Shown: piece after piece, positions 7,110-38,681 of the stretch
Numbering within the stretch: the stretch's first letter is position 1
Layout of the letters: each line of letters begins with the position of its first letter
Source of the DNA: Clostridia bacterium
GTDB taxonomy: Bacteria; Bacillota; Clostridia; UBA1212
NCBI GenBank assembly: GCA_017461545.1
Contig: JAFTXP010000017.1
Span: 1,008-65,007 of the forward strand
DNA: 64,000 nucleotides
Reading direction: 5' to 3'
Notes under the pieces: generated by a model
Told to the model about the DNA's origin: nothing
The model's input: the letters and a program-made list of their open reading frames with translations, nothing else
Databases searched by the model: none
Translations under genes and position numbers: made by a program

Positions 7110-7612
7110 ATGCACATAAAATATCTTATCGGTCAAAGTGATTTCTAAATGTTTCTATAGCGATATTTCATTAAATGTGCTATGCTTGAGGTACAATAGG
7201 GACAAAAACATGCTAATCTTACCTTATTTTATTAAAAAAAATAAGGTAAGGCAGGAATAGCCATCATACTTTTGGCAAGTTTACGGCTTAAAAACAAAGT
7301 TTTCAACTGCATTTTCTTTGGTATGATTTTCAATGTGCCAGTATGATTTTTGTCATACCTTAAATTTGTGAAATTTATTTTAAATAAAAAGCGTAAAACA
7401 GACCTTGAAACAGAATTTTTTCTGCTTCTGGGTTTGTTTTTTGTATTTAATAAATTTAAAAAATTTTAAAAAATATAATTTAACCCTGACACTAGTTTTC
7501 AGGGTTAAATTATAAAATATGCTTGCAACTGTAAGAAATCGGGACGCTGATTTCGTAAAAATAGTTACATTTTAATCAAAAACAAAAAATTAAAAATAAG
7601 GAGGAATATAAA

Positions 7613-7681
7613 ATGAAAACTATTTTCGGTGTTAGTTCAGCTACACCTATTAACAAAAAGCTGAAGAACGGTTATACATAA
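7613..7681 (+). CDS. Candidate 22-aa small ORF (MKTIFGVSSATPINKKLKNGYT)
   Basis: Canonical SD aaggagg 8 nt upstream of the ATG. Below the ORF-track cutoff. No recognisable family. Overlaps the 3' end of the convergent DUF1906 ORF. Confidence 0.25.
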   Translation: MKTIFGVSSATPINKKLKNGYT

Positions 7682-8099
7682 ATACAGCACCAAAGTAATC
7701 AACATCCTTTGTTGCCTGTACAAAGTGACTGCACTGACGGTCAAAGTTAAAGTTTTTAGAAGAATCGGTATTACCAATAAATGCGGGTACATAACCGTTT
7801 TCTGAAATTGTCTGTGCAAAGGAAATCATCCAGTTGTGGTTTATACTCCATTCAGGTTTAATTTCTGCAAATAAGGCAATACCCACGTTCTGAGGAACAC
7901 CTAACTCTTTTGCGGTTTCAACTGCTCTAAAAGCATCTAACGTACCATTTGCAGTAGAAACCTGTATTTCGGTAAGGTCACGAATAACCAAACCTATTTT
8001 GCAGTCCTTCGACTTTAAGAACTCAATTTCTTCTGCAGTGATTTTATCTTCACCGCAAAGAGTTCTCATACAAAACGTGGGAAAGCCTTTCTGTCTCAT
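7650..8099 (-). CDS. DUF1906 (Rv2525c-like glycoside-hydrolase fold) domain protein, probably N-terminally truncated
   Basis: GFPTFCMRTL...ITAEEIEFLKSKDCKIGLV...ANGTLDAFRAVETAKELGVPQNVGIALFAEI...ENGYVPAFIGN follows the DUF1906 pattern. About 30-40 N-terminal aa are missing. The upstream in-frame continuation is interrupted by a stop. Confidence 0.55.
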   Translation of the reverse strand: MRQKGFPTFCMRTLCGEDKITAEEIEFLKSKDCKIGLVIRDLTEIQVSTANGTLDAFRAVETAKELGVPQNVGIALFAEIKPEWSINHNWMISFAQTISENGYVPAFIGNTDSSKNFNFDRQCSHFVQATKDVDYFGAVFMYNRSSAFC

Positions 8100-8303
8100 T
8101 ATCCAATCATATTATGGCGACCGAGCCAAAATGTGACAGTATGCCTGAAGAGTGGGCACCCTATTGTCCTTCTGCATTACAGCCCGAGGATATGCACCTT
8201 TGGTGTTGCGGTACGACTACCTTTGATTTTATAGGGGTAGAAGATGTATACGCTAAGGACGATGAAGTCCTTGAAAAAATGTGGTAAAGGAGGTATAATA
8301 AAA

Positions 8304-9353
8304 ATGAACAAGAAACAGTATAATAATGTAATTGAAAATACTTTAAAGCACGAACTTTCTGCACAGACAGATGATTCCCTTAGCGTTGCAAGAGCCATAT
8401 TTGACAATATGGGCGTTGCTTTACCGCAGGGTGATATTAAGACTGTTTATGAAACCATAAAAACCAATAACTATATGGGTTGGAAGTCTTGCACTATGCA
8501 AGAAGCACAAGCTGCGGCTGACCGAGGTGTAGCTGCCATCGGTATAAGTGAAGACAAAATTGTAGTTCTTTCTGCAAACGATGAGGAACAGCCTGTAGCA
8601 CAAACCGCATCAGTTATGACGCTTTCTGAAAATACTTCTGCTTTTGCGGTTGAAGGTATGCAGTATTATTCGTATAGTTATGGCGGAACAACTTGCCAAG
8701 GTGGTAGTGGCACCTGTTCAAATAACAGATACAAAAGAGAAGATGCCGTTGCTTATGCAAGAGAATATGCTAATTCGACCGGACCTAACTATGTAAATTT
8801 TGGGGACCCTGTGTTTGCGGCAATATATCTTGCTCAATATGGAACATGGACCGGAATGGCAGACTGTGCAAACTTCGTTTCACAGTGTTTAGTTGCCGGA
8901 GGATTGAAAATGAACGATGATTGGTATTTTTATCAACATATAAATACTGCGGTTGCATTGCCAGGGATTACCGATATTTATTACCGTGATAAAGACGGTG
9001 TATTAGTTAGTTATCCTATCAGTTATTATTTTTCGGCACCATGGACTACTGCAAGTGCACAATATGAATATTTCTCAAATACAGCAAATGGATATACTTC
9101 CACGAATGTTATCAAAATCAGATCAATTTGCGATATTGAATATGCAGTTTCACATTAAAATATTCAACCAGGCGATTTAATGTATTTTTCCAGCGATGGC
9201 GGTCAAACTGTTTATCATGCAACAATAATCAGTGATGTAACAAACAATGATATTAAATTTTGTGCGCATACAACGGGACGTAAGGATAAAAAATTATCAG
9301 AAGTTCTCGGAAATGAGACAGTGGTAATTGTTAGACTTAATGATAGGATATAA
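8304..9353 (+). pseudogene. Amidase_6-type putative cell-wall amidase interrupted by an in-frame TAA (9156..9158)
   Basis: SD aaaggagg before the ATG at 8304. The domain reads YKREDAVAYAREYA...DCANFVSQCLVAGG...W...AVSH-TAA-NIQPGDLMYFSSDGGQTVYHATII...CAHTTGRKD. The same frame continues across the stop to a TAA at 9351..9353. Confidence 0.7.
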
Positions 9354-9421
9354 ATAGAAATATTCTAATTGATATAACTTATTGTTACAATTCCGGATAA
9401 TTTATAATAGGGGGCGATTTT

Positions 9422-9814
9422 TTGTTAAAGTTTTCTTTTAATTTTAAGAAAGTGTTTTTAATCGTTTTAATTGTATTTATTGCTTTATATACGATAATGG
9501 TTTTGAACACAAACTCTGTTATAAGATATGCAAAATCGGTTTTTCTCGGCGAAATTTCTTTAGAAGAAGTTGTTGATACGCCACTATACAGATATTATCC
9601 CAAAGACCTCGAAATAGCAACAACCGATTTAAGTATTAATAGGATATTTGTTGCTCATAATTTTAAGGAAGGATATATTTGGGTAAAATATGACGAAGAG
9701 CGAATGGATTCTTCTGGAAACATACTTAGTGGCTCGTGGGATGCTGTATCAAGATGGAAGATACATAAAGAAAACGGTGAATGGAAAGTTATTGAAATAA
9801 AAGAAGCCCCCTAA
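9422..9814 (+). CDS. Hypothetical N-terminally membrane-anchored protein
   Basis: 130-aa ORF with a TTG start and one N-terminal TM (VFLIVLIVFIALYTIMVL). No family recognised. A terminator follows. Confidence 0.55.
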   Translation: MLKFSFNFKKVFLIVLIVFIALYTIMVLNTNSVIRYAKSVFLGEISLEEVVDTPLYRYYPKDLEIATTDLSINRIFVAHNFKEGYIWVKYDEERMDSSGNILSGSWDAVSRWKIHKENGEWKVIEIKEAP

Positions 9815-9817
9815 GCA

Positions 9818-9855
9818 CTGAACAAGTCCGTTTTAACGGACTTGTTCAGTCTTTC
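9818..9855 (+). terminator. Rho-independent terminator
   Basis: ctgaacaagtccg / cggacttgttcag 13-bp perfect stem, then tctttcc. Confidence 0.7.
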
Positions 9856-9990
9856 CTTATCTTTCTTTATTTCAGAGAAACCTATTTTATTTCCATTTTG
9901 ATATATATATCAAAATATGCTGTAATTGTAAAAAACATAAATTTGTCTCTATTTTGACACAACCATAAATTTATGCAAGAGGTGAAGTTT

Positions 9991-10647
9991 ATGACAGATA
10001 TTTTGTTGTTGGGAACTTATCATTTCGACGGAGAAAAAATAAATTTTGGTCTAGAAGAAGTACAAGCACAGATTGATTCGTTTTGCCGTAGAATGGCAGG
10101 GTTTTCTCCGGATGCTGTGGCTGTTGAACTTGATAAAGCTAAATACGGCGACAAAGTGTATATTTCAAACGATAATTGGAGATGCAATATATCAAATGAA
10201 GCTTTTTCGGTCGGCGGTCGTATTGCATCTTTTTCAGGCTTGGAATATATATGTCCCGTTGATAAAGTACTTACATTAAATTCTGATATGCTAAGCGATG
10301 AGAGCATGAAACTTGTTATGCCGAGGATGAACTTTTTAAAGAAATTAGAAGAGATAAGCGATATCAGAAAAAAGCATTTGTTTATTAACAGTGCAGAGTA
10401 TAGGTTGCAAGACGCAAATATGTATCTGGATATAAATTCAATGAACCGGGATGGCGATTATTTTGAGTCCCGATGTCTTGCCGATTGGTATTTAAGAAAC
10501 TTATGTATTTTTTCAAACATCCAAAAACTTTCTGAAGAACACGATAGAATTCTTGTTCTTTACGGAGCAGGACATGTTCCGATTTTAAAGGATTTAATAG
10601 ATGCTTCTGACCGAATGAATTGGATTGATCCGAATTTATATTTATAA
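9991..10647 (+). CDS. Hypothetical protein, DUF5694-like (LLLGTYHF motif)
   Basis: SD gaggtg sits before the ATG at 9991. N-terminal ILLLGTYHF...PDAVAVE and C-terminal LVLYGAGHV resemble the DUF5694/ChaN-like pattern. Assignment is by memory only. Confidence 0.5.
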   Translation: MTDILLLGTYHFDGEKINFGLEEVQAQIDSFCRRMAGFSPDAVAVELDKAKYGDKVYISNDNWRCNISNEAFSVGGRIASFSGLEYICPVDKVLTLNSDMLSDESMKLVMPRMNFLKKLEEISDIRKKHLFINSAEYRLQDANMYLDINSMNRDGDYFESRCLADWYLRNLCIFSNIQKLSEEHDRILVLYGAGHVPILKDLIDASDRMNWIDPNLYL

Positions 10648-10738
10648 ATTTAATATATCTTTTTAAACATATAAGGAAACTACGAACTGCAAAAGTTAAG
10701 TGTTTGTTTTTATATGATATAAGATTGGAATTGATAAA

Positions 10739-12262
10739 ATGAAAAGAAATAAAATAAAGCGTATATTTGCTTCGATGCTGATGTTATTAGTTCTTGTGCA
10801 GACAGGTTGTAATAAGAACGATAATGATAAAACGGAAAATACTGCGACTGTCGCTGGGGAGAGTTCATCCGTAGTCACACCGGACTTATCGGCTGAGCCT
10901 GTAAATACAGCAGTGTCTACAGAAAACACAGAGAATCATATGTCAACGGATAGTGCTGCAATCGTGCAGACTGCAAAGCCTACAGAATCATTTGAAACTA
11001 ATTTGCCGACGTCTGCGCCAACTGCTTCTGCAACAGCTGTTACGCATAAAGCAACAGCTTCATCTTCCGTAACCGCAACTGCCGCACCTTCTAAGACGGC
11101 AACTGCCGTATCTTCTTCGACAATAACAGCCAAAAAGACTGCGACACCTACAGTTGAAACTCCAAAGGCTACGAGTACACCTGTAGTGACGGATACGCCT
11201 TACGTAGGCGAGGAGATTACAGTTCAGTCGATTATTGATGAAATGACACTTGAAGAGAAAGTTGCCCAGCTTTTTGTCGTAGTTCCTTACGCCCTTACCG
11301 ATATTTCAAATGCGAACGCCGCAAACGAAACGTACAAAAATGTTTTCGACAAATACCCCGTAGGCGGTTTCTGTTATATGGGAAATAGCATTGTTTCCGA
11401 GTCACAAGTTAAAAAAATGATTTCAAAGTCACAGCAGTACAGCTATGACAGAGTAGGTGTTCCTCTGTTTACTTGTATAGACGAAGAGGGCGGAACGGTT
11501 GCGAGAATAGGTAATTCAGGTATTGGTGTTCCGTCTGTGGGAAATATGTGTGATATCGGTGCTTCGGGCGATGTTTCCGCGGCAAAAAATGTCGGAAGTA
11601 CAATAGGCGATTACCTTTCCGAATTTGGTTTTAACGTGGATTTTGCTCCTGTTGCCGATGTTCTCAGCAATCCCGATAATACGGTTGTAAAAAAACGTTC
11701 TTTCGGAAGTGATTCTGAGATTGTTTCCGATATGGCACTTGCAGTAATGAGAGGTCTTGAAGAAAAAGGCGTCTACGGAACTCTTAAACATTTTCCGGGG
11801 CACGGCGCTACCGAGGGTGATACCCATGAGGGGTATGCATATACGTCAAAAACTTTGGAAGAACTTGAAAAATGTGAGCTTATTCCGTTTGCTGACGGTA
11901 TAGAAAGCGGTGCGGATTTTATAATGGTAGGACATATTTCCTTGCCGAACATAATCGGCGACAACACGCCTGCGTCACTGTCTCACAAAATGATTACGGA
12001 GATTTTGCGTGAGAAGATGGGTTATGACGGCATTATAATTACCGATGCGCTTAATATGGGCGCGATTACGAAGCAATATTCTTCTGCCGAGGCCGCTGTC
12101 GCGACGTTACTTGCAGGCTCTGACATGATTTTGATGCCTGATGATTTTGTGAGTGCATATGAGGGTGTACTGGAGGCTGTGTGTGATGGTACGGTCACCG
12201 AGAAACGAATCGACGAGTCTCTTGAAAGAATATTAAAAATCAAGCTCGAGATGATGAATTGA
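10739..12262 (+). CDS. Glycoside hydrolase family 3 lipoprotein (NagZ-like beta-N-acetylhexosaminidase)
   Basis: Lipobox LVLVQTGC, a ~150-aa T/S/A-rich linker, and a GH3 N-domain with EEKVAQLF and KHFPGHGATEGDTHEG. Confidence 0.85.
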   Translation: MKRNKIKRIFASMLMLLVLVQTGCNKNDNDKTENTATVAGESSSVVTPDLSAEPVNTAVSTENTENHMSTDSAAIVQTAKPTESFETNLPTSAPTASATAVTHKATASSSVTATAAPSKTATAVSSSTITAKKTATPTVETPKATSTPVVTDTPYVGEEITVQSIIDEMTLEEKVAQLFVVVPYALTDISNANAANETYKNVFDKYPVGGFCYMGNSIVSESQVKKMISKSQQYSYDRVGVPLFTCIDEEGGTVARIGNSGIGVPSVGNMCDIGASGDVSAAKNVGSTIGDYLSEFGFNVDFAPVADVLSNPDNTVVKKRSFGSDSEIVSDMALAVMRGLEEKGVYGTLKHFPGHGATEGDTHEGYAYTSKTLEELEKCELIPFADGIESGADFIMVGHISLPNIIGDNTPASLSHKMITEILREKMGYDGIIITDALNMGAITKQYSSAEAAVATLLAGSDMILMPDDFVSAYEGVLEAVCDGTVTEKRIDESLERILKIKLEMMN

Positions 12263-12275
12263 CAGCAAAAGTTTG

Positions 12276-12304
12276 TTGCAATGATTTCGACGATAAGGTA
12301 TAAT
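12276..12304 (+). promoter_or_regulatory. Sigma-70-type promoter TTGCAA-17-TATAAT
   Basis: Near-consensus hexamers with a 17-nt spacer, ~60 nt upstream of the NifU-like gene. Confidence 0.6.
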
Positions 12305-12365
12305 CGGAATGTTGTAATTTTTAGTTAAAGAAATTTATAAGATAACGAAAGGGGCTAATGGACAT

Positions 12366-13058
12366 ATGAATTATTCTCGCGAAGTAGAAGAAATGGTATG
12401 TGTAAAGCAGGGCGCAAATCACGGTCCGGCACCGATTCCTGAGGAAGGCAGATGGATAAAAGCTAAAGAAGTCGCTGACATTTCAGGTTATACACACGGT
12501 ATCGGTTGGTGTGCGCCGCAGCAGGGAGCTTGTAAGCTTTCTCTTAATGTTAAAAACGGTATTATCGAAGAGGCTCTTGTAGAGACAATCGGATGCTCGG
12601 GTATGACTCACTCAGCAGCTATGGCAGCTGAAATTCTTCCCGGAAAGACAGTTCTCGAAGCACTCAATACTGACCTCGTTTGCGACGCTATAAATACAGC
12701 TATGCGCGAACTCTTCCTCCAGATTGTTTACGGACGTACACAGTCTGCATTCTCAGAGGACGGTCTTGTAATCGGTGCAGGTATGGAGGATCTCGGTAAG
12801 GGTGCTCGTTCTATGGTTGGTACTATGTACGGTACAAAGGCTAAAGGTGTAAGATACCTCGAAATGACAGAGGGTTACTGCACAAGAATGGCTCTTGATG
12901 AGAACGACAACGTTATCGGTTACGAGTTCGTATCACTCGGAAAGATGACTGACTTTATTAAAAAAGGTATGGAGCCCAACGAAGCTTATGACAAGTCAAA
13001 GGGTACATACGGCAGATTTGCAGACGCGGTAAAATATATTGACCCGCGTAAGGAATAA
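12366..13058 (+). CDS. NifU/IscU-N-like domain protein (partner of GGGtGRT protein)
   Basis: 230 aa. GIGWCAPQQGACKLSLNVKNGIIEEALVETIGCSGMTHSAAMAAE resembles the IscU-type Cys scaffold. Strong C-ending/GGT-rich codon bias. Confidence 0.6.
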   Translation: MNYSREVEEMVCVKQGANHGPAPIPEEGRWIKAKEVADISGYTHGIGWCAPQQGACKLSLNVKNGIIEEALVETIGCSGMTHSAAMAAEILPGKTVLEALNTDLVCDAINTAMRELFLQIVYGRTQSAFSEDGLVIGAGMEDLGKGARSMVGTMYGTKAKGVRYLEMTEGYCTRMALDENDNVIGYEFVSLGKMTDFIKKGMEPNEAYDKSKGTYGRFADAVKYIDPRKE

Positions 13059-28360: not shown

Positions 28361-29008
28361 GTGAATAAAGTTGCTCCTTCGATTTTATCAGCAGATTTTT
28401 CTGTATTAGAGCAGGAAATAAAAAAAGTTGCCGATGCCGGCGCTGATTTAATACATATAGATGTTATGGATGGTCATTTTGTTCCGAACTTAACATTCGG
28501 AGCTCCGATTGTAAAATGCATCAGAAAAGTAACTGATTTGCCGTTTGATGTTCACCTTATGATAGAGAATCCGGAGAGATATCTGGAAGATTTTAAAAAT
28601 GCCGGTGCTGATATAATCACTGTTCATGCAGAAGCGTGCATTCATTTGAATGTTGTCATTCAAAAAATAAAATCTATGGGAGTAAAAGCCGGTGTTGCGA
28701 TCAATCCTGCCACTCCCTTGTGTGCTATAGAAAATGTATTAAACGATGTGGATATGGTATTACTTATGAGTGTCAATCCCGGATTCGGAGGGCAGTCATA
28801 TATAAATTCGGTTACGGATAAAATCCGTGAGCTGCGAAAAATTTGTGACGAAAAGGGCATAGAAATCGATATCGAAGTTGACGGAGGAATTGATAAAATT
28901 ACCGCATCCCGTGCTTCTGAGGCCGGCGCAAATATACTTGTGGCGGGTTCTGCGATATACGGAGCGGAAAATATATCCGAAATGATTTCTGTTATAAAGA
29001 ATGCCTGA
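28361..29008 (+). CDS. rpe: Ribulose-phosphate 3-epimerase
   Basis: GTG start. APSILSADF, HIDVMDGHFVPN, MSVNPGFGGQ and VDGGI. Confidence 0.96.
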   Translation: MNKVAPSILSADFSVLEQEIKKVADAGADLIHIDVMDGHFVPNLTFGAPIVKCIRKVTDLPFDVHLMIENPERYLEDFKNAGADIITVHAEACIHLNVVIQKIKSMGVKAGVAINPATPLCAIENVLNDVDMVLLMSVNPGFGGQSYINSVTDKIRELRKICDEKGIEIDIEVDGGIDKITASRASEAGANILVAGSAIYGAENISEMISVIKNA

Positions 29009-29043: not shown

Positions 29044-29760
29044 ATGAAGCGTTTACATAAATATAAAATTGCAGATTTGACTGTAGATGTCAGACATAAT
29101 TCTTCAGTATTGCTTCGGAACGGTATGAAATATGCAGACGATTCATCGGATAAGGCGGATATCACAATTGAAGTAAGCGAAGATAGAATATTAAAGGCGC
29201 TCGAATACAATAAATCATTTGACAGGGATTATGCAGAGTATTTTGTATCGGGAATGGACTTTTATCGAAAACTGATTCCTCATTACGGATTTATGCTTCA
29301 TTCATCCTGTGTAGCAGTGGATGGAAAAGGTTATTTATTTACTGCTGACAGCGGAGTCGGAAAGTCTACCCATACATCTCTTTGGAGGGAATATTTGGGG
29401 GACAGGGCAGTTATGATAAATGATGACAAGCCTGCCATCAGATATATTGACAATAAGTTTATGGTATACGGAACTCCGTGGAGCGGAAAATCTGATGAGA
29501 GCAGTAACGAAAGTGCTGTTGTATCCGCTTTGGTTTTTCTGGAACGCGGCTCTTGTTTTGAGATAGAGGCAATTCCATGCGACAGAGCAGTTGAGAGAAT
29601 TATACCGCAGATGTTGCGTTACATCCGTCCTGAAAATGCCGCAATTCAATTTGATTTACTTGACAGGTTTTTAAAAACAGTTCCGTCATATGTGATGAAA
29701 TGTACGCAGGATATTGAAAGTGCAAAGTCTGCATGGGAGTTTTTAAGTAAAAACTTTTGA
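29044..29760 (+). CDS. HPr-kinase-C-terminal-like P-loop protein (HprK-related putative peptide/protein kinase)
   Basis: 238 aa. HSSCVAVDGKGYLFTADSGVGKSTHT is the HprK-type P-loop context. Starts 35 nt after rpe. Confidence 0.65.
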   Translation: MKRLHKYKIADLTVDVRHNSSVLLRNGMKYADDSSDKADITIEVSEDRILKALEYNKSFDRDYAEYFVSGMDFYRKLIPHYGFMLHSSCVAVDGKGYLFTADSGVGKSTHTSLWREYLGDRAVMINDDKPAIRYIDNKFMVYGTPWSGKSDESSNESAVVSALVFLERGSCFEIEAIPCDRAVERIIPQMLRYIRPENAAIQFDLLDRFLKTVPSYVMKCTQDIESAKSAWEFLSKNF

Positions 29761-29785
29761 TATGGTTTGAAGGGACGTTTTTTAT

Positions 29786-30055
29786 ATGAAAATTAATGAG
29801 AGTTTTTTATTGAAGAATATTGCAGGAAAGAATGTTGTCGTACCGGTCGGCGAAGCAGGCAAGAAACTTAACGGTATGATTACTCTGAAAAATGATTCAT
29901 CTGTATATATTTGGAAATGTTTCAAAGAAGATGTTTCAATAGAAGAAGTTGCTGATAAAATTGTCAAAGAATTTAATATAGACAGAGAAAAGGCTGTTGC
30001 ATATGTGAACAGTTTTATTGAAAAGCTTTCTCCGTACGGTGTTTTTTGCAAATGA
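29786..30055 (+). CDS. PqqD-family protein (RiPP recognition element-like), copy A
   Basis: 89 aa. Pattern LLKNIAGKNVVVP...MITLKNDSSVYIWKCFKEDVSIEEVADKIVKEFNIDREKAVAYVNSFIEKL matches the PqqD fold length and layout. Confidence 0.65.
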   Translation: MKINESFLLKNIAGKNVVVPVGEAGKKLNGMITLKNDSSVYIWKCFKEDVSIEEVADKIVKEFNIDREKAVAYVNSFIEKLSPYGVFCK

Positions 30056-30537
30056 TGGATATTAAGGGTAAAGACAGCGGAAAATTTATAAAAGAGAATA
30101 TTGGTTTATACATTTCCGACGTCAAATCTGTTGTTGATGACGGCGGAAAGTTTTTTTTACGCATCACCGGGACAAGTATGCTCCCTTTTTTGAAAAACGG
30201 ACGGGATGTTGCCGTGTTGTCAAAGCCTTCAGGACTGAAAAAATATGAAACAGCATTTTATGTCAGGTCAAACGGTCATGTTGTGCTGCATAGAATTGTT
30301 GCGGAACACGGTGGTTTTTATGATTTCTGCGGAGACCACCAAACTGAGATTGAAAAGAATATTCCCAAAGAGAATGTGATTGCTGTAATGCGTGAATATG
30401 AGAAAGATGGTAAATTGTATTCATGTAATAAAATGTCATATAAAATTAAAGCCGTGCTCTGGGTAAAGTCACGGCTTGTCAGAAAATATTCTAGAAAAAT
30501 AAAAATAAAAATTAAGCATTTGGTGAAACAACAATAG
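30052..30537 (+). CDS. S24/S26-family serine peptidase-like protein, copy A
   Basis: ATGA overlap with the PqqD stop. ITGTSMLPFLKNGRDV (GxSMxP Ser motif), VLHRIV and CGDHQ. Basic C-terminal tail. Confidence 0.65.
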   Translation: MMDIKGKDSGKFIKENIGLYISDVKSVVDDGGKFFLRITGTSMLPFLKNGRDVAVLSKPSGLKKYETAFYVRSNGHVVLHRIVAEHGGFYDFCGDHQTEIEKNIPKENVIAVMREYEKDGKLYSCNKMSYKIKAVLWVKSRLVRKYSRKIKIKIKHLVKQQ

Positions 30538-32281
30538 TTTTTTGATTAGTATAAATAACCCTTCCGGGCTTTGCTCCGCCCGGTTTTTTTACATATTTGA
30601 CACGGGTATAATCAACTTCGACTTTTGAAGAAGTTTTCAGACTGCTGTGGCGCGCTGCGCAGACAGCTGCTTCTGTTACGGCACTATTTGTAATTATGCC
30701 GCCGTTTTGTGAGATACGTAAAATGACATGCGACCCGGGAGCGTCCTTTACATGAAACCATAGATCGTTGGGATTTGCTGTTTTGAGTGTAAGCGTATCA
30801 TTTTGTTTGTTGTTTTTTCCTATAAGGATTTCATAGTTGTCAGATGTGTATAAAGATATCGGAGCGCTTTCTGAGACTTTAAATTTTTGTTTTCCGTTAC
30901 GTTTATTCTTTTCAGAAATTACACCTAAGTATCCCTGTTCGGCAAGCTCTTCGCGAATATCTGCAATATCGGCACTTTCAGTACAACTCTCAAGATGTTC
31001 TTCCACACTCTTTAAATATTCAAGTTCTTCGATACATTTCTCCAATGACTGAATTGCATTTTCATAAGTGCTTTTTTTCTTTTTATACTTTTTATAATAG
31101 CTTTGAGCATTAAATGCGGCGGATTTATTTTTGTCCAAATCAATAACTATAGTTTCACCGTTTTCAGAATAGTAGTTTACAACTTCGATGTTTTCTTCGC
31201 CGCCTTTCAGCATATACATATTTGATGTGATAAGTTCACCTTTAATCCTGTATATATCGTAATTTTCAGATTCGCGAATAGCGGTGTCGTGAATTTGTAT
31301 CTTTTTTTCAGCACGGGCAACCGCATTGGAAAGACTTTTCTTTATGGAGGCCTTTTTCTGTCTGCTTCGCTCGATTGTATCTTTAGAAGTGAAATATTCA
31401 TCAAGCATAAGATTTATCGAACTGAAATATTTTACTTTTGACTCACAGAAGACGGTGTCGATACAGTGAAAATCAACCGGAACATCTTTTTCCGTTGGAG
31501 TATCGCCTATAATAACAGCAGGCTTATATGAGTGCATTGAGATATCATTGCATACTTTTTTGAGCTCTGAAAAAACACGTTTTAAAGATTCGTAAGGCAA
31601 TGAAAGAGCGGCGGACTGCGGCGATACTCCTGCCTTTAAACAAATTGTTTTGCAGAGAAGAGGACTGAAGCCGCTTAAATTATTTAAAATATATGACGAA
31701 ATGTTTCCGTTAAAGTTATCGGGAATCCGGCTCCTGACAAATTTGTCTACTTCTGCATCACAGTTTGGCTCTGTTTTATTCTGTTGCGGAGGTAATACAT
31801 ATGGATGTGCCGGTAAAACTTCTCTCAGACTGCTCATAGAGCTGTCGATATGTTTAATGGAGTCATATATAACACCGGTAGGGCTAAGGAGCATGATATT
31901 ACTGTGCCTGCCCATTATTTCTATTACAAGTTTTTTCTCAACCGGATCGCCGAGCTCATTGTATGTGTCAATCTTTATACTGATGACACGGTCAAAACCT
32001 GCCTGTCTTATCTCCGATATTTTTCCGCCCTGGATATGTTTTCTCAAAACCATACAGAAAGGCGGAGCAAACGCAGGATTTTCCTTTTTTTGTTTGGTGA
32101 GATGAATACGGGGATTCGCCGGACTTGCACTGAGTAAAAGACGGTACTTTTCGTGCATGGAATGGCATAACAAGATTATTTCATCCTGTTCTGTCTGATA
32201 TATTTTTTCTATTCGTCCGCCTGTAAGCAGTCCGGAAAGTTCCCACACAACTCCGGATGCAATGATACCGTCATATGGCAT
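30512..32281 (-). CDS. rqcH: Ribosome quality control protein RqcH (NFACT / FbpA family)
   Basis: 589 aa. N-terminus MPYDGIIASGVVWEL...GGRIEKIYQ, a coiled-coil middle, and the NFACT-R motif DLWFHVKDAPGSHVIL. Confidence 0.9.
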   Translation of the reverse strand: MPYDGIIASGVVWELSGLLTGGRIEKIYQTEQDEIILLCHSMHEKYRLLLSASPANPRIHLTKQKKENPAFAPPFCMVLRKHIQGGKISEIRQAGFDRVISIKIDTYNELGDPVEKKLVIEIMGRHSNIMLLSPTGVIYDSIKHIDSSMSSLREVLPAHPYVLPPQQNKTEPNCDAEVDKFVRSRIPDNFNGNISSYILNNLSGFSPLLCKTICLKAGVSPQSAALSLPYESLKRVFSELKKVCNDISMHSYKPAVIIGDTPTEKDVPVDFHCIDTVFCESKVKYFSSINLMLDEYFTSKDTIERSRQKKASIKKSLSNAVARAEKKIQIHDTAIRESENYDIYRIKGELITSNMYMLKGGEENIEVVNYYSENGETIVIDLDKNKSAAFNAQSYYKKYKKKKSTYENAIQSLEKCIEELEYLKSVEEHLESCTESADIADIREELAEQGYLGVISEKNKRNGKQKFKVSESAPISLYTSDNYEILIGKNNKQNDTLTLKTANPNDLWFHVKDAPGSHVILRISQNGGIITNSAVTEAAVCAARHSSLKTSSKVEVDYTRVKYVKKPGGAKPGRVIYTNQKTIVVSPNA

Positions 32282-32444
32282 TTTTAATATGCTCCTTTAA
32301 TAATTATTCTGTGAATATAATACCTTGACAGATTTTTATTAGCAATAGAAAATTCAAAATATTTCATCTTGCGATATGCATTTTTTATGTTACAATTGTT
32401 TGTAGACTTACAGAGAAAGTGTAAGTTTGTTTAGGAGAAATATT

Positions 32445-33443
32445 ATGGGATTATTTAAATCTGAAAAATATACGAAACCCGGAAAAGGTGTAGAAAAAAA
32501 CGAAAAACAAAAACGCCCCTTTTTCAGATTTTTTGAGTTGCTTTGGAGAAAAAAATATAAATTGATAGGGATAAATCTTATATATGTCCTTATGAATTGT
32601 GTTTCCGTAATTTTTGTGTGCGGAATATTCGCGGCTGCTGTAGGTCTGTACGGAATGTTTTTAGGCGGTTCAGATTGGGTAAGCAACTTTTTTGCTTCAA
32701 GCAGTTCGGATTTGTATTTCAAGTTTATGATGTTTTTTGCAATATTCTTAACGTCTGTTCCTATATATGCGATTGGTCCGTTGCAGGCCGGTTTTACATA
32801 TATAATGAAGTCGTTTGTGAAAGAAGAACCTTGTTTTTTGTGGCACGATTATATAAGCAAGGCACGTTCCAACAGAAAACTTGCGTGGCAGGTCAGTCTG
32901 ATAAACGGTATTGCTGCGACTCTTCTGATTTTAAATTTTGCTGCATATCTGATTATAAGTGATCCTGAGGGTCCTTTCGCAGGTGCCATACCAGGGTTTA
33001 TACTGTTTATTGTTGCGCTTGTAATCATAGCACTTTTCATGATACTGGTGATGATTAATCTGTATACGTATCACATGATGGTTACATTTCGTGTCACATT
33101 GAAGCAGCTGTATAAAAACTCATTTATTCTTGTTCTTATGAAGTGGCTGCCGAATTTGCTGATGCTGATTCTTGAGGGAGTCATAATAGGTATTCCTATT
33201 TTCCTGATAGTTACGGAATATTTTGATTTTATCGTAAGTCTGTTATTATACATTTTTATAACTCCGGCATTTATAGGATTTTTAAATAATTTCTATATTT
33301 ATCCGACTATAAAAAAGTATTTAATAGACAATCCGAATGCAGATAAGTCTAAAAGTGTGCAGGAGGAAATCGAAGAGAGTAAAGAGATCGAAGAACCGGC
33401 GACAAACGGTAGGTTTGAAAACGGAATGTGGATAGAAGATTAA
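32445..33443 (+). CDS. DUF624/YesL-like multi-pass membrane protein
   Basis: SD aggag before the ATG at 32445. FFRFFELLWRKKYKLIGINLIYVLMN and about 6 TM segments. Acidic C-terminal tail. Confidence 0.5.
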   Translation: MGLFKSEKYTKPGKGVEKNEKQKRPFFRFFELLWRKKYKLIGINLIYVLMNCVSVIFVCGIFAAAVGLYGMFLGGSDWVSNFFASSSSDLYFKFMMFFAIFLTSVPIYAIGPLQAGFTYIMKSFVKEEPCFLWHDYISKARSNRKLAWQVSLINGIAATLLILNFAAYLIISDPEGPFAGAIPGFILFIVALVIIALFMILVMINLYTYHMMVTFRVTLKQLYKNSFILVLMKWLPNLLMLILEGVIIGIPIFLIVTEYFDFIVSLLLYIFITPAFIGFLNNFYIYPTIKKYLIDNPNADKSKSVQEEIEESKEIEEPATNGRFENGMWIED

Positions 33444-33541
33444 AGGTTGTTTCATCGAAAAATGATTTGAATAGTTTTTATTTATTCGGTACAACATAAC
33501 AAAAGTTTAGATTAAGTAACAGAAGGGATAGTGTGTGGTTT

Positions 33542-34615
33542 ATGAGTAATTCATACATAAAGACAAAAAAGTCGGGCAGCAAAGCCGTAATTATTATATT
33601 GTCGTCTGTATTGGCTGTTGTTTTGATTGTGGCAATAGTTTTAGCTGTTATTCTGATAAATAAGTCAGATGATAAGGACAAAGGTTCGGATAATAGTTTG
33701 AGTAATAGTTCAATCGACAGTTCCGGTGACGGTAATGTAGATCCTAATAGCAGTTCAGGTGACAGCTCAAATGATGGAAGTACGCAGGAATCTCCTGCTG
33801 AAACCGATGAAAATACTATTGCAACAAGATTCAGTGTTCCTGAAGGATATATAAGAGTAGATGTAGAAGCGGGCAGCTTTGCCGAATATATAAGAAATTA
33901 TACACTGAAGCCAAAAGGTTCGATTGCATACTATTATGATGATGAAACCGGCTCTTATTTTGAAAATAAAGAGGCTTCGACAGTAGGTGTATTTGAGTTG
34001 CCTAACCAGCTTAATAGATGGATGCAGTGTGCTGATTCAGTAATAATGTTGTATGCCGAGTACCTTTATTCACAACAGAAGTACAGTGAAATTTCATTTA
34101 CTTTTGCAAATGGATTTGAGTGTGATTGGCTTACGTATTCACAAGGAAACCGATTTAATTCTTCCAACAGCACATGGGAGTTAAAGGCAGATCCGGATGA
34201 TTCATATGAATCTTTTCAGAAGTATCTTGATCTTGTATATCAGTATGCAAATACCGATTCACTTGCGAGAGATATGAGTTCCAGTCCTGCTATGCAGGAT
34301 ATAAGCATCGGTGATGCATTTGTCGTAGGCGTTTCCCAATTACAGGCAGTAGCCGCTGCTGTCGCACCCGGCATAGACATAAAATACGGACATGCGATAT
34401 TTGTTGCAGATGTTGCTGTAAATCCCACTACAGGTGAGTGTATTTTTATGCTTGCAGAGGGTAATACGCCTGCTACCGATATTACAATCATTGAAAATCC
34501 GGATACTTCAATGGGTGTTTGGTTTAAATTCAACGAAGTAGGATCATTTGTAAAGAACGAAAACCCCGGAATTCCGTGGTCTGCAGCATGGCTTAAGAGA
34601 TTTCCCGGACAGTGA
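33542..34615 (+). CDS. DUF4846-like membrane-anchored protein
   Basis: N-terminal TM and an S/D/G-rich linker. The C-terminal region ...YGHAIFVADVAVNPTTGECIFMLAEGNTPATDITIIENP...W matches the DUF4846 pattern as remembered. An alternative GTG start lies at 33533. Confidence 0.55.
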   Translation: MSNSYIKTKKSGSKAVIIILSSVLAVVLIVAIVLAVILINKSDDKDKGSDNSLSNSSIDSSGDGNVDPNSSSGDSSNDGSTQESPAETDENTIATRFSVPEGYIRVDVEAGSFAEYIRNYTLKPKGSIAYYYDDETGSYFENKEASTVGVFELPNQLNRWMQCADSVIMLYAEYLYSQQKYSEISFTFANGFECDWLTYSQGNRFNSSNSTWELKADPDDSYESFQKYLDLVYQYANTDSLARDMSSSPAMQDISIGDAFVVGVSQLQAVAAAVAPGIDIKYGHAIFVADVAVNPTTGECIFMLAEGNTPATDITIIENPDTSMGVWFKFNEVGSFVKNENPGIPWSAAWLKRFPGQ

Positions 34616-34648
34616 CAAATTGTGTAATAAAAACTAAAAAATAGGACA

Positions 34649-34688
34649 AAATAACCACCTAAGATAATAATCAAAGGTGGTTATTTTT
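34649..34688 (+). promoter_or_regulatory. 12-bp perfect hairpin that contains the sleB Shine-Dalgarno (terminator and/or translational block)
   Basis: aaataaccacct (34649..34660) pairs with aggtggttattt (34675..34686). The SD aaaggtgg lies in the 3' arm. tt then the ATG at 34689 follow. Confidence 0.5.
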
Positions 34689-35435
34689 ATGAACAGAAAA
34701 AAACTGTATGAGGTCATATGTGTATTAACTGTTATAGCAATCTTTGCTTCGTCATTAATTATTGGTGAATCATACTTTTACGGCAGTAATGATTTTATCG
34801 GTATCAGCGAAAATGATGAGGTTATAGCAGAGGCGCAGGATGCGTTGTCAAAAAGAGGTTCATACGGAAGCGAAGTCCGCCAGATTCAGACGAAACTGAA
34901 AAACTGGGGATATTATAACGGTGATATTGACGGGATATACGGCAGCAGGACAGAAAGTGCGGTAAAAAGTTTTCAGCGTAAAAACGGTCTGACCGTTGAC
35001 GGTATAGCAGGACCTGCCACTCTTGCTGCAATGGGGATATCTTCGGGATCGTCGGGTTCAACATCCGTATCGGCTTCTTCAGCAAATGTAGAGCTTCTGG
35101 CAAGAATCATATACGGAGAGGCAAGAGGCGAACCTTACGCAGGACAAGTTGCAATAGCGGCAGTTGTTCTTAACCGAGTGGAAGATAGCAGATTTCCAAA
35201 GACGATTTCCGGGGTAATTTATCAGTCCGGTGCTTTTGATGCGGTTTCAGACGGACAGATAAATTATACGCCTAACTCAACTGCGTATCAGGCGGCAAGA
35301 GATGCGTTAAACGGATGGGATCCGACCTACGGCAGTATATACTATTATAATCCTGTAACTGCAACAAACAGATGGATAAAGACTCTGCCTATAACTGTAA
35401 CAATAGGAAAGCATGTTTTTTCTGTAGGAAAGTAG
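34689..35435 (+). CDS. sleB: Spore cortex-lytic enzyme SleB-like (PG_binding_1 + Hydrolase_2)
   Basis: GSEVRQIQTKLKNWGYYNGDIDGIYGSRTESAVKSFQRKNGLTVDGIAGPATL (PG-binding) and IIYGEARGEPYAGQVAIAAVVLNRV...FPKTISGVIYQSGAFDAV (SleB hydrolase). Confidence 0.88.
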   Translation: MNRKKLYEVICVLTVIAIFASSLIIGESYFYGSNDFIGISENDEVIAEAQDALSKRGSYGSEVRQIQTKLKNWGYYNGDIDGIYGSRTESAVKSFQRKNGLTVDGIAGPATLAAMGISSGSSGSTSVSASSANVELLARIIYGEARGEPYAGQVAIAAVVLNRVEDSRFPKTISGVIYQSGAFDAVSDGQINYTPNSTAYQAARDALNGWDPTYGSIYYYNPVTATNRWIKTLPITVTIGKHVFSVGK

Positions 35436-35538
35436 TTTAATTTTGTAAAAAATCAACAGATATGTATTTACTTTGAATAACAGATTACATTATTATATTT
35501 TTTTAAAGTATGAGATAAAAGGAGTGGAGATGTAACAA

Positions 35539-35808
35539 ATGCAGTATAAGATATGTGACAATATTGAAGTAACTGAAGTTTCCGGAGAAGAATTTATAAT
35601 ATGTTTTGATGTCGAAAGCGGAGAATCTCATGTGCTTGATGTTGCGGCAACGGCTGTTTTAAATACCGTCGGAAAAGGTATGTCTTTAGAGGCTGCCGTT
35701 AATGCGATTGCGGCGGAGTTCGAGGCAGAACCGGGTGAGATAGCAGGAGATGTAGCCGCATTTACACAGACTTTGATTGAAAAGAAAATCATTGAAAAGG
35801 CTGTGTAA
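35539..35808 (+). CDS. PqqD-family protein, copy B
   Basis: 89 aa. EVSGEEFIICFDVESGESHVLDVAATAVLNTVGKGMSLEAAVNAIAAEFEAEPGEIAGDVAAFTQTLIEKKII is the PqqD layout. Confidence 0.65.
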   Translation: MQYKICDNIEVTEVSGEEFIICFDVESGESHVLDVAATAVLNTVGKGMSLEAAVNAIAAEFEAEPGEIAGDVAAFTQTLIEKKIIEKAV

Positions 35809-35815
35809 TACATAA

Positions 35816-36178
35816 ATGGGTATTGAAAGTATTAACGAGAAAAATTTGCTCAGAACAATTTTTTTGCGGCAGATAAAAATTGACAATTTAATTGAAATAC
35901 GCGGTTTCAGCATGGAGCCGACATATTATGCCGGCGATAAGGTCAAGGTAGAAACCGCACCCTGCTATAAAGTGGGTGATGTTGTTATCGCAATAGATGA
36001 CCCTTGCAGACTTCTGATACACAGAGTAGTAGAGGTTATACACGGAGCAGGCGATGAAGGTATAGTTTATAAAATTAAAGGCGATAATGCAGAAGCCTGT
36101 GAAATGATTCCTGCGAAGTATTGTCTTGCAAAAGTCACGGAAGATAAGCAGAATCTTAAGTCAGAGAGGCGGAAATAA
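35816..36178 (+). CDS. S24/S26-family serine peptidase-like protein, copy B
   Basis: 120 aa. IRGFSMEPTYYAGDKV (GxSMxPT), LIHRVV and KIKGDN (box-E-like). Confidence 0.65.
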   Translation: MGIESINEKNLLRTIFLRQIKIDNLIEIRGFSMEPTYYAGDKVKVETAPCYKVGDVVIAIDDPCRLLIHRVVEVIHGAGDEGIVYKIKGDNAEACEMIPAKYCLAKVTEDKQNLKSERRK

Positions 36179-36180
36179 AT

Positions 36181-37218
36181 ATGACAGAAGGCGCAATGAT
36201 AAGCGGTGCATACATAGAGATAACAAACAGATGTAATCTTAATTGCAGGGATTGCTACAATGCTTCGGGTTTAAATCGTACAACCTGCGAGATTTCGCCG
36301 GAGGATTTGGAAAAGTTTATAACGATGCTCTATGAAGGATGCGATGCAAAAGCTTTTTCTATTTCAGGCGGAGAGCCGACCATGCATACGAGATGGAACG
36401 AAGTGTGTGACATGATTGAACGAATGAAGCATATAAAGTTTACCGTTATTACAAACGGTACTACGGGAAATAAAAGGCTTAAAGAGCTTTTAGAAAATAA
36501 TGACCATGTGACGGTTCAGTACAGTATCGACGGTACCTGTGCCGAAATACACGACCAGATGAGGGGCAAAGGTAAATTCGATATTACCATGAAAAATATT
36601 TCTGAGATGAATCCTAAAATTAAACCGTATTTCCACATGGTTGTAGCTCCTTTCAACCGTGACAATGTTAAAGACTATTTTGAATTTGCGGAAGAGCACA
36701 ACGCGACCCCGACATTTTCTTTTACCTCAAAACACGGCAATGCGAGTGATAATTGGGATGAGATTTCAATGAATGACTCACAGCGTCTTGAGTCGCTGAC
36801 GGTGATTATTGACGAGTATAAAAAGAGAAAAATAGAGAATATTCCGGCTCCTTTTTGTACGGTCAAGTGTGCACTTACGGATCCTGCAAACAAGTTTAAT
36901 TTGTGTGTAACACCTTACGGCGATATCTATCCGTGTCAAGGTCTTTATGATAAAAAATTTTCGCTCGGTATATTGCATGATTTTAATTTAAGTGCGATAA
37001 TAAAAAAAGCGGAGAAGATGAGACAAACGCTGATTGAGCGCACCGAAAAAGATTACGGTTGTAAACGCTGTTTGGTTCGTTCCGTTTGCGGAAAAGGCTG
37101 TGCGGCATCCGCTTATACGCTGTGCGGCGACATAATGGGCTTTGACGGCGATTGCGGTTACAGGCGAAAAGTTTTGATAAAATACTATCTTATGCCATCT
37201 GCTAGGGGTATTTCCTGA
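36181..37218 (+). CDS. Radical SAM enzyme with C-terminal SPASM domain
   Basis: ITNRCNLNCRDCYN (CxxxCxxC), SGGEPTM, and the C-terminal auxiliary-cluster motif YPCQG...CKRCLVRSVCGKGCAASAY (Cx2Cx5Cx3C). Confidence 0.85.
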   Translation: MTEGAMISGAYIEITNRCNLNCRDCYNASGLNRTTCEISPEDLEKFITMLYEGCDAKAFSISGGEPTMHTRWNEVCDMIERMKHIKFTVITNGTTGNKRLKELLENNDHVTVQYSIDGTCAEIHDQMRGKGKFDITMKNISEMNPKIKPYFHMVVAPFNRDNVKDYFEFAEEHNATPTFSFTSKHGNASDNWDEISMNDSQRLESLTVIIDEYKKRKIENIPAPFCTVKCALTDPANKFNLCVTPYGDIYPCQGLYDKKFSLGILHDFNLSAIIKKAEKMRQTLIERTEKDYGCKRCLVRSVCGKGCAASAYTLCGDIMGFDGDCGYRRKVLIKYYLMPSARGIS

Positions 37219-37328
37219 CTTTCTTCATAATTACAAATGCTTTGAGAAGTTACTGTTCTGAACTTTTTAGTTTCATCGTCATATTATTTATTATGTATTT
37301 TTAATTTTATTTCGGAAGGTGACTTTTT

Positions 37329-38681
37329 ATGGCAAGAATGTTTGGAACTGACGGTGTTCGCGGTGTAGCTAACAAAGAACTTACTCCGCTTCTGGCATTT
37401 AAACTCGGTCGTGCAGGCGCGTACGTGCTCGCAATGGCTAAACATCATAAGCCCACAATTATCGTTGGATGTGATACAAGACTTTCATGCAGTATGCTTG
37501 AAAATGCTCTTGTTGCCGGTATCTGTTCTACAGGTGCCACTGCTATGTGTGCAGGCGTTATTCCTACACCGGCTATTGCATATCTCACAAGAAAATATGA
37601 GGCTGATGCGGGCGTTATGATTTCTGCGTCACATAATTCATTCGAATTCAACGGTATAAAATTCTTCAGTGACCAGGGATATAAACTCCTTGATGAGACA
37701 GAAGACCAGATAGAAAGTTATGTAACAGCAGAGGAGGACACTCTTCCGAATCCTGTAGGTGAAAATCTCGGAAAGCGCATTGAGTGCACTACAGCATTTG
37801 ATGACTATCTTAGCTATCTTGTGGAGACAGCAGGATGCAGCCTCAAAGGTCTTAAAATTGTTCTTGACTGTGCAAACGGCGCATCGTACAGAGTTGCTCC
37901 TGCGTTGTTCGAAAAACTCGGTGCTGATATTACTGTTATTCATAACGAACCTACCGGTGTAAATATTAATAAAAAGTGCGGATCTACACATATGGAGTCA
38001 CTTTGTGAAAAAGTTAAAGAAATCGGTGCAGATATCGGATTTGCTTTTGACGGTGATGCAGACAGACTTTTGGCAGTTGATGAGAACGGAGAGATGGTTG
38101 ACGGTGACGCAATCATGTCTATCCTTGCTATCGCGCTTAAGAAAAAAGGTTTGCTCGTAAGAAATACACTTGTTATAACAATCATGAGTAATATGGGTGT
38201 TGATATCATGGCCAAAGCAAACGGCATTGATATTGTAAAGACAAAAGTAGGCGACAGATATGTTCTCGAAGAAATGCTCAAGAGCGGTTATGTCTTGGGC
38301 GGAGAGCAGTCTGGTCACGTTATTGCGCTTCAGCACAATACTACAGGTGACGGTTTGCTCACAGCTCTCAAGGTTGCCGAAATAGTTGCTTCGGAGAAGA
38401 AGAAGCTTTCAGAACTTGCTTCTGTATATACTGCGCTTCCCCAGGTTCTTATAAATGCCAAAGTCAGAAATGACCTTAAGTACTCATTTATGGAGAATGA
38501 GGATATAAAAGCTATGTGCGAGGAACTCGAAAACGAGTTCAACGGCGAGGGCAGAGTTGTTATCCGTCCGTCCGGTACAGAGCCGATTGTAAGAGTTATG
38601 ATTGAGGGCAAGGACTACGAGTATATCAAGCGCCGTGCGGAGCTTCTTGCAGCTCTTATCGAGAGTAAACTCGGTATTTGA
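37329..38681 (+). CDS. glmM: Phosphoglucosamine mutase
   Basis: MFGTDGVRGVAN, active-site SASHNSFEFNGIKFF, FDGDADR, and GEQSGH. Confidence 0.97.
   Translation: MARMFGTDGVRGVANKELTPLLAFKLGRAGAYVLAMAKHHKPTIIVGCDTRLSCSMLENALVAGICSTGATAMCAGVIPTPAIAYLTRKYEADAGVMISASHNSFEFNGIKFFSDQGYKLLDETEDQIESYVTAEEDTLPNPVGENLGKRIECTTAFDDYLSYLVETAGCSLKGLKIVLDCANGASYRVAPALFEKLGADITVIHNEPTGVNINKKCGSTHMESLCEKVKEIGADIGFAFDGDADRLLAVDENGEMVDGDAIMSILAIALKKKGLLVRNTLVITIMSNMGVDIMAKANGIDIVKTKVGDRYVLEEMLKSGYVLGGEQSGHVIALQHNTTGDGLLTALKVAEIVASEKKKLSELASVYTALPQVLINAKVRNDLKYSFMENEDIKAMCEELENEFNGEGRVVIRPSGTEPIVRVMIEGKDYEYIKRRAELLAALIESKLGI

Follow-up and report, generated by a model that had tools for sequence, protein, structure and literature searches.

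Introduction

PqqD-family domains are established leader-binding RiPP recognition elements (RREs) in the pathways for peptides that are made by the ribosome and then modified post-translationally (RiPPs), and radical S-adenosylmethionine (rSAM) enzymes with a SPASM domain, of the kind considered here, make cysteine-derived cross-links. We analyzed a 64,000-nucleotide stretch of a Clostridia bacterium genome (the window; assembly GCA_017461545.1, contig JAFTXP010000017.1) that encodes two PqqD proteins, each paired with a signal-peptidase-like protease. One pair (module A) is accompanied by an HprK-like P-loop protein, A_HprK, and the other (module B) by an rSAM/SPASM enzyme, B_rSAM; open reading frames (ORFs) and profile searches confirmed this layout, which an initial annotation had proposed. 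The two PqqD genes start 5.75 kb apart and are the only significant PF05402 matches in the whole 1.37-Mb assembly. As the annotation had also stated, the pairs are different sequences: the similarity of A_PqqD to B_PqqD is not significant (E 0.057), and the peptidases A_S24 and B_S24 are 25% identical (E 9e-4).

The SynChlorMet (Scm) system has the same parts list of an HprK-like P-loop protein, a PqqD protein and an rSAM/SPASM enzyme, and the annotation had pointed to this likeness. Unlike the locus studied here, however, Scm includes a pair of rSAM enzymes and lacks a signal-peptidase-like protease, and in our locus the kinase and the rSAM enzyme lie in different modules. The likeness holds at the level of Pfam, where A_HprK and nearly all of its listed homologues are assigned to PF27840 'ScmC' by precomputed annotation rather than by a rescoring. 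It does not extend to the cassette, as the four equivalog models (TIGR04248-04251) score far below their cut-offs (24.4 against 125 for A_HprK, 22.4 and 19.3 against 100 for the PqqD proteins, and 91.4 against 400 for B_rSAM as ScmE and 71.6 against 400 as ScmF). The HPr-rel-A system (TIGR04352 and TIGR04353) was also considered and rejected: A_HprK has no match, the HprK-like protein of the rSAM cassettes described below scores 50.9 against 200, and B_PqqD scores 26.2 against 35.

In lasso-peptide clusters, HPr-kinase homologues phosphorylate a precursor serine, and a nucleotidyltransferase, which in some cases forms a fusion with the leader protease, glycosylates the phosphate (PMC8498205). 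The paeninodin and pseudomycoidin clusters of Firmicutes resemble the present modules in having an HPr-kinase homologue, a PqqD protein (B1), a PF14907-type nucleotidyltransferase, an ATP-binding cassette (ABC) exporter and the leader motif aromatic-x-x-P-x-(I/L) (PMC8498205). Unlike those clusters, the modules have no cyclase and no B2 transglutaminase-type protease, with a Sec11/SipW-type homologue replacing the latter; in module B an rSAM/SPASM enzyme is present as well, and the precursors are without the conserved terminal serine. A lasso pathway was rejected, as neither a cyclase (Asn-synthetase-like) nor a B2 protease was found among the window's genes or in the Acetivibrio cellulolyticus and Desulfosporosinus contexts, as annotated with Pfam, that are described below. 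The lasso PqqD models scored 27 against 80 and 32 against 70.

Sactipeptide and ranthipeptide maturation (AlbA, StsB, PapB, SCIFF maturase) likewise combines an rSAM/SPASM enzyme and an RRE with a small cysteine-bearing precursor. The best NCBIfam similarities of B_rSAM are to StsB, MftC, ScmE and PapB, and the module B precursor has a faint SCIFF-like match, but all of these scores are under cut-off. Here, in contrast, the RRE is a separate PqqD protein, the precursor core carries just one or two cysteines, the predicted leader peptidase resembles signal peptidases, and a kinase and a nucleotidyltransferase are further parts of the full cassettes. A literature search returned no description of either cassette or of either precursor family; the lasso clusters were the only precedents for the kinase and the nucleotidyltransferase.

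Independent distributions and separate precursors

We found that the locus probably holds two distinct, paralogous RiPP-type modules, each at its own conserved position, flanking a housekeeping block. Across related genomes, the occurrence of module A is not associated with that of the rSAM enzyme (both in 6 genomes, module A only in 18, rSAM only in 5 and neither in 12; odds ratio 0.8, p = 1). Instead, each module tracks its own precursor family. Module B precursors are present in 10 of the 11 rSAM-positive genomes and in none of the 30 rSAM-negative ones (p = 1e-8), while module A precursors are present in 20 of the 27 module-A genomes and in none of the 19 genomes without module A (p = 2.5e-7). 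Four other genomes (G025, G030, G031 and G040) have both modules, always on different contigs, and the modules are adjacent in this genus only.

The annotation had asked whether the two halves are one functional system interrupted by unrelated genes or two independent systems, and had suggested that co-occurrence and contiguity in other genomes could decide. The phyletic distributions proved independent. The modules were not contiguous elsewhere; a precursor was indeed present, separately for each module. Because the distributions are independent and each module has its own precursors, a single split cassette fails on the annotation's own terms and the alternative of two independent systems is favored.

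The proximity of the modules reflects the synteny of the backbone. In the window, module A follows rlmN, stp, prkC, rsgA and rpe (28361-29008) on the + strand, with 35 nt between rpe and A_HprK; in the sister genus, it likewise comes after rpe, and the rqcH-sleB block lies behind it. The block of rqcH, the membrane protein, DUF4846 and sleB, extending to glmM, is also found in a genome of another family (G015) with neither module beside it; it is backbone and part of neither system. The next gene after module B is glmM. In G027, a genome of another family, the rSAM cassette (L021/L077) also abuts glmM, as the window does at 36181-38681, which suggests that the module B cassette ancestrally stood next to glmM.

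From the sequence, the modules are predicted to be separate transcription units. The convergent rqcH gene and a strong terminator-like hairpin (30564-30583) separate them, and no such terminator-like site was found between rpe and A_HprK. This hairpin is likely to mark the end of a stp-prkC-rsgA-rpe-module A transcript. It falls, on the + strand, within the 3' coding end of rqcH, and A_S24 and rqcH overlap by 26 nt. A small-ORF scan of the window revealed no precursor-like ORF within or adjoining either module (gaps of 35, 103 and 110 nt).

Module B as a reduced copy of a rare cassette

B_rSAM scores above cut-off for PF04055 (70.6 against 29.5 bits) and for the SPASM family PF13186 (22.2 against 21.5 bits). 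The cysteines of its CxxxCxxC motif (C18, C22 and C25) and its C-terminal SPASM cysteines are invariant in 10 orthologues. All 25 listed NCBIfam equivalogs fall far under cut-off, the best being StsB (100.5 against 625). By these sequence measures, B_rSAM is best placed among the radical SAM/SPASM peptide maturases, in a subfamily that has not been catalogued. Its partner B_PqqD passes the PF05402 cut-off (40.4 against 23.4 bits). It is a relative of the PqqD proteins of rSAM cassettes (6e-8 to 4e-11), not of A_PqqD, and a putative leader-binding RRE.

Among 41 related genomes, 11 have an orthologue of B_rSAM (34-42% identity), in one case truncated by a contig end. Of 185,579 GTDB species, about 25 have one, and all of these are uncultured Clostridia of the gut; after them, identity drops to 26% for the next-best match. 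In relatives, the enzyme sits in a contiguous cassette with its own HprK, PqqD and peptidase::NTP_transf_5 fusion. Type I cassettes have the order PqqD, HprK-like protein (~300 aa), peptidase::NTP_transf_5 (~710 aa), ArsR-type helix-turn-helix (HTH) protein (~385 aa), rSAM enzyme, 277-aa protein, precursor, HTH protein and second precursor. Type II cassettes comprise HprK, a peptidase::PqqD fusion, the rSAM enzyme and NTP_transf_5, with an ArsR-like gene and a precursor close by. The cassette kinases match A_HprK at about 1e-4 only. B_S24 has its homologue in the relatives' peptidase::NTP_transf_5 fusions, as their N-terminal domain (1e-17 to 1e-21). Module B is a reduced copy of this rare PqqD/HprK/peptidase::NTP_transf_5/ArsR-like/rSAM/precursor cassette. 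A third arrangement was seen in G015:C12 (L042, about 7487-12885, - strand), where a module-A-like HprK and peptidase are contiguous with two PqqD genes, NTP_transf_5 and a distant rSAM enzyme (388 aa, 7e-7 to B_rSAM).

Module B precursors follow the pattern MKKWxxPx(I/M)xT, then a small-x-small site, the element (C/x)-S-x-(Y/F) and an invariant cysteine (in condensed form, MKKWxxP…(A/S)(A/G)-C-(S/T)xY…C), and NCBIfam has no model for them. The window lies on contig C10 of a genome, G000, that is 69% complete, and the genome of its sister species, G001, is 95% complete. A search for RNA evidence of co-expression turned up just four runs containing the stretch, all of them DNA metagenomes. When G000 was searched with a profile built from module B precursors, exactly one ORF was significant (G000:C23:31949-32074; E 9e-9), which encodes a 41-aa peptide (MKKWTAPSMVTVSAEKLGEVMVASACTLYNGECVLVRSLGG), and searches of G000 by regular expression and refined profile found no second precursor. 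The ORF has a GGAGGTG ribosome-binding site and, on its 3' side, a G+C-rich hairpin with a T-run. It comes directly after the gene for a 357-aa ArsR-HTH protein homologous to the HTH proteins of the cassettes, and the pair is flanked by carA and feoAB. The precursor is likewise unlinked to module B in G001. In another genome (G018), four module B precursor genes lie on four contigs (L047-L050), away from the single PqqD-rSAM-HprK-peptidase cassette; from this case, scattered precursors seem common in the order.

Module A as the core of a widespread cassette

The P-loop of A_HprK, FTADSGVGKST, aligns with that of HprK/P. In a Foldseek search, its AlphaFold2 (AF2) model (pLDDT 95) had HprK/P as its best match (1e-6, TMt about 0.5), followed by PEPCK. 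Family models score below their cut-offs: besides NCBIfam ScmC, for which the bit scores are given above, TIGR00679 reached 20.3 against 240 bits and PF07475 18.6 against 33.3 bits. A profile of the HprK-like proteins returned mostly generic P-loop matches from PDB sequences, and the fold search was more informative. By analogy with the lasso clusters, A_HprK would be a peptide Ser/Thr kinase. Its family has >7,800 homologues, with thousands in other Clostridia. A_PqqD (PF05402, 37.5 bits against a cut-off of 23.4), whose orthologues come after A_HprK at about 20 loci, is the predicted leader-binding RRE of this module.

Orthologues of A_HprK (32-41% identity) occur in ~27 of 46 genomes of the order. 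The module is nearly always arranged as HprK-PqqD-peptidase, in many cases with NTP_transf_5 after the peptidase or joined to it in a fusion. We found this trio at about 20 loci in five families of the order, in varied contexts and with no rSAM enzyme. In Acetivibrio cellulolyticus and Desulfosporosinus sp. FKA, a small ORF comes first, followed in this order by ScmC, PqqD, peptidase, ABC exporter and NTP_transf_5. The module A precursor family was defined from those small ORFs and from similar ones adjoining module A in G017, a genome with two copies of the module and precursors adjoining each. Its members are 33-56 aa long, with the leader MKKxYExPEIEIVxFxxEDIITxSG and an acidic core that often contains GG(I/V)xLP(D/P)D. 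Module A forms the center of a very widespread cassette, one that looks like the lasso-peptide toolkit minus its cyclase.

BLAST clustering of the small ORFs around 20 module A loci gave no clusters. Gene-family clustering of the same contexts suggested PrkC-like and DUF4846-like links to module A, which were rejected as artefacts of low complexity or signal anchors. In two genomes of genus g15, a 142-155-aa lipoprotein is encoded directly upstream of module A (L031:6173-6640, - strand; L035:7594-8022, + strand). It has a signal peptide, a lipobox, a Pro/Thr-rich linker and a C-terminal GG(I/V)(M/L)LPPDYL, the motif found in many module A precursor cores. One of the module A copies in G017 has, between PqqD and peptidase, a gene for a 184-aa membrane-anchored protein (L032:9113-9667) with a low-complexity linker and a C-terminal domain of ~60 aa.

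G000 also has a stand-alone NTP_transf_5 gene on contig C11 (G000:C11:17684-18889, equal to L137:6684-7889; PF14907, 5e-35). The enzyme is closest to module-A-linked enzymes (4e-28 to 1e-15) and not to those of the rSAM cassettes (about 1e-5), and its gene is likewise unlinked in G001. It overlaps by 4 nt an upstream 252-aa ORF (L137:5929-6687) that has no family match and no homologue in any fetched locus; the pair adjoins ddl and murI. In the sister genus, the orthologues at G005:C13:1211-2227 and G003:C31:4779-5825 have one in-frame TGA each within the aligned region, which could mean either that they are pseudogenes or that the match runs across a gene boundary.

Signal-peptidase-like proteases of both modules

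The motifs G-x-S-M-x-P, H-R and G-D(N) are invariant across 31 aligned peptidases of both module types. The corresponding segments of A_S24 (GTSMLP, LHRIV and GDH) sit in the invariant columns of the alignment, and those of B_S24 are GFSMEP, IHRV and GDN. With a profile of this alignment, human SEC11A/C was matched at 6e-9 and signal peptidase I of bacteria at 3e-6; the peptidases remain under the curated cut-offs (38.3 against 51.85 for TIGR02228 and 21.7 against 23.3 for PF00717). The top Foldseek folds for the AF2 model of B_S24 (pLDDT 86) were SpsB, SEC11 and LexA. Together, the motifs and the model point to both peptidases as homologues of the endoplasmic reticulum (ER)/SipW-type (Ser-His) signal peptidase.

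The N-terminus of A_S24 has no hydrophobic anchor, and in the B_S24 model residues 3-23 form a charged helix with no hydrophobic segment. Because the peptidases are without a membrane anchor, they are predicted to be cytoplasmic. Both are putative leader peptidases of the Sec11/SipW type, and B_S24 would cut after a small-x-small site. They share with SipW and Sec11 (signal peptidase I, MEROPS S26B) the Ser/His/Asp motifs (GxSMxP, HR and GDN), the fold and the probable small-x-small cleavage. They differ in the missing anchor, in their length of just 109-173 aa and in being encoded within peptide-maturation cassettes, sometimes fused to PqqD or NTP_transf_5. To our knowledge, a cytoplasmic ER-type signal-peptidase homologue has not been described in any RiPP pathway, and the literature searches also found none.

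Proposed mechanism

In the mechanism that we propose, the PqqD protein would bind the (W/Y)xxPx-hydrophobic part of the leader, and the rSAM enzyme would then cross-link the invariant core cysteine. The signal-peptidase-like protease would next cut off the leader after an Ala-x-Ala-type site, ASA/CT in this genome. A small-x-small site precedes the core elsewhere as well (AAG/CS, LSA/CS and AAA/CS), in agreement with the -3/-1 rule known for type I signal peptidases. Where the cassette is full, the kinase would phosphorylate the conserved junction serine and the nucleotidyltransferase would decorate it, two roles that we assign because of the lasso-peptide cluster precedents (PMC8498205). The conserved junction serine, a candidate phosphorylation site, is a threonine in this kinase-less genus.

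Alternative explanations

Several points weigh against two independent systems. The association tests (p = 1e-8 and 2.5e-7 for the precursors) were not phylogenetically corrected, G000 is just 69% complete, a good number of the matches to module A precursors are weak when taken singly (E 1e-5 to 1e-2), and cleavage site, cross-link and phosphorylation are predictions. Of ~22 cassettes with adequate coverage, module B of this genus is the sole one that has no HprK and NTP_transf_5 of its own. Even a 16-sequence profile found no module A precursor in G000 or G001, although module A is intact and the sister genus has such precursors. With no module B kinase and no detectable module A precursor here, independent descent does not prove independent function. 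A single system could have formed in this genus if module B lost its kinase and NTP_transf_5 and module A lost its precursor, so that A_HprK, and possibly the module A peptidase and the unlinked NTP_transf_5, act with B_rSAM on the C23 peptide, the one precursor type seen in both species. Such a system, scattered over at least four loci, would account for these gaps; it would also agree with the intact module A ORFs at saturated synonymous sites, which suggest continued selection, with the MKK-aromatic-x-x-P-x-hydrophobic start of both leader families and with the adjacency of the modules solely in this genus. However, in its similarity to module A precursors the C23 peptide does not exceed the other members of its own family (-0.5 bits, mid-range). 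Neither a clear module A precursor nor an rSAM enzyme is present in at least four further module-A genomes (no match in G002, G013 and G037; one marginal match, E 0.03, in G024), and failed precursor detection is therefore common. The modules are also predicted to be separate transcription units, and backbone synteny explains their proximity. We consider a single system unlikely.

The missing precursor could instead mean that module A is a decaying, functionless remnant in this genus. Between G000 and G001, A_HprK and A_S24 have the region's highest non-synonymous divergence (dN 0.26-0.29, against 0.06-0.22 for their neighbors); dN and ORF integrity were used here in place of dN/dS, which is unusable at saturated synonymous sites. 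Yet all three ORFs have stayed intact in both species despite that saturation, the P-loop and Ser/His/Asp motifs are conserved, and both species keep the A-type NTP_transf_5, making decay very improbable. The annotation's speculation that the PqqD-peptidase pairs act on the intervening exported or membrane proteins (the membrane protein, DUF4846 and SleB), widened here to include a partner role, fared worse still, and we regard it as scarcely credible. Within the window, position is its only support, and the g15 lipoprotein with its GG(I/V)xLPPDYL end makes protein-sized module A substrates conceivable. Against it, G015 has the block without either module, modules A and B occur without these genes in dozens of loci, neither peptidase has a membrane anchor, and each module co-occurs with a small-peptide family of its own. 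Two distinct modules flanking a housekeeping block is the reading that we retain.

Genomic layout

The coordinates of both modules and of the genes between them are collected in Table 1. The annotation's assignments of rqcH, DUF4846 and sleB were borne out, but its label of DUF624 for the membrane protein was not, since this protein has no Pfam match even at E 10; its sole library match is a weak one to NCBIfam MusI_fam.

Table 1. Features of the two modules and the intervening block (window positions)
Feature	Position	Strand	Location	Description and basis
A_HprK	29044-29760	+	module A	HprK/PEPCK-fold P-loop protein, 238 aa; Pfam PF27840 'ScmC'
A_PqqD	29786-30055	+	module A	89 aa; PF05402
A_S24	30046-30537	+	module A	S24/S26-like peptidase, 163 aa; alignment motifs and profile comparison
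rqcH	30512-32281	-	between modules	Pfam/NCBIfam
Hairpin and T-run	30564-30583	+	inside 3' end of convergent rqcH	G+C-rich; 6 G-C pairs, then T7
Membrane protein	32427-33443		between modules	338 aa
DUF4846	33533-34615		between modules	Pfam/NCBIfam
SleB	34677-35435		between modules	Pfam/NCBIfam
B_PqqD	35539-35808	+	module B	89 aa; PF05402
B_S24	35816-36178	+	module B	S24/S26-like peptidase, 120 aa; motifs, AF2 fold
B_rSAM	36181-37218	+	module B	rSAM/SPASM enzyme, 345 aa; PF04055 and SPASM

Implications

The locus cautions genome mining that neighboring look-alike RiPP modules need not form one cluster. A precursor, a tailoring enzyme and a regulator may be scattered across a genome, where cluster-based tools miss them. 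Our analysis provides a candidate substrate family for each of two uncharacterized cassettes, one very common in Clostridia and the other found in about 25 uncultured gut species. It also provides a candidate for a new kind of leader peptidase, a cytoplasmic homologue of the ER-type signal peptidase. If the proposed chemistry is true, the products would be new classes of modified peptides from gut bacteria.

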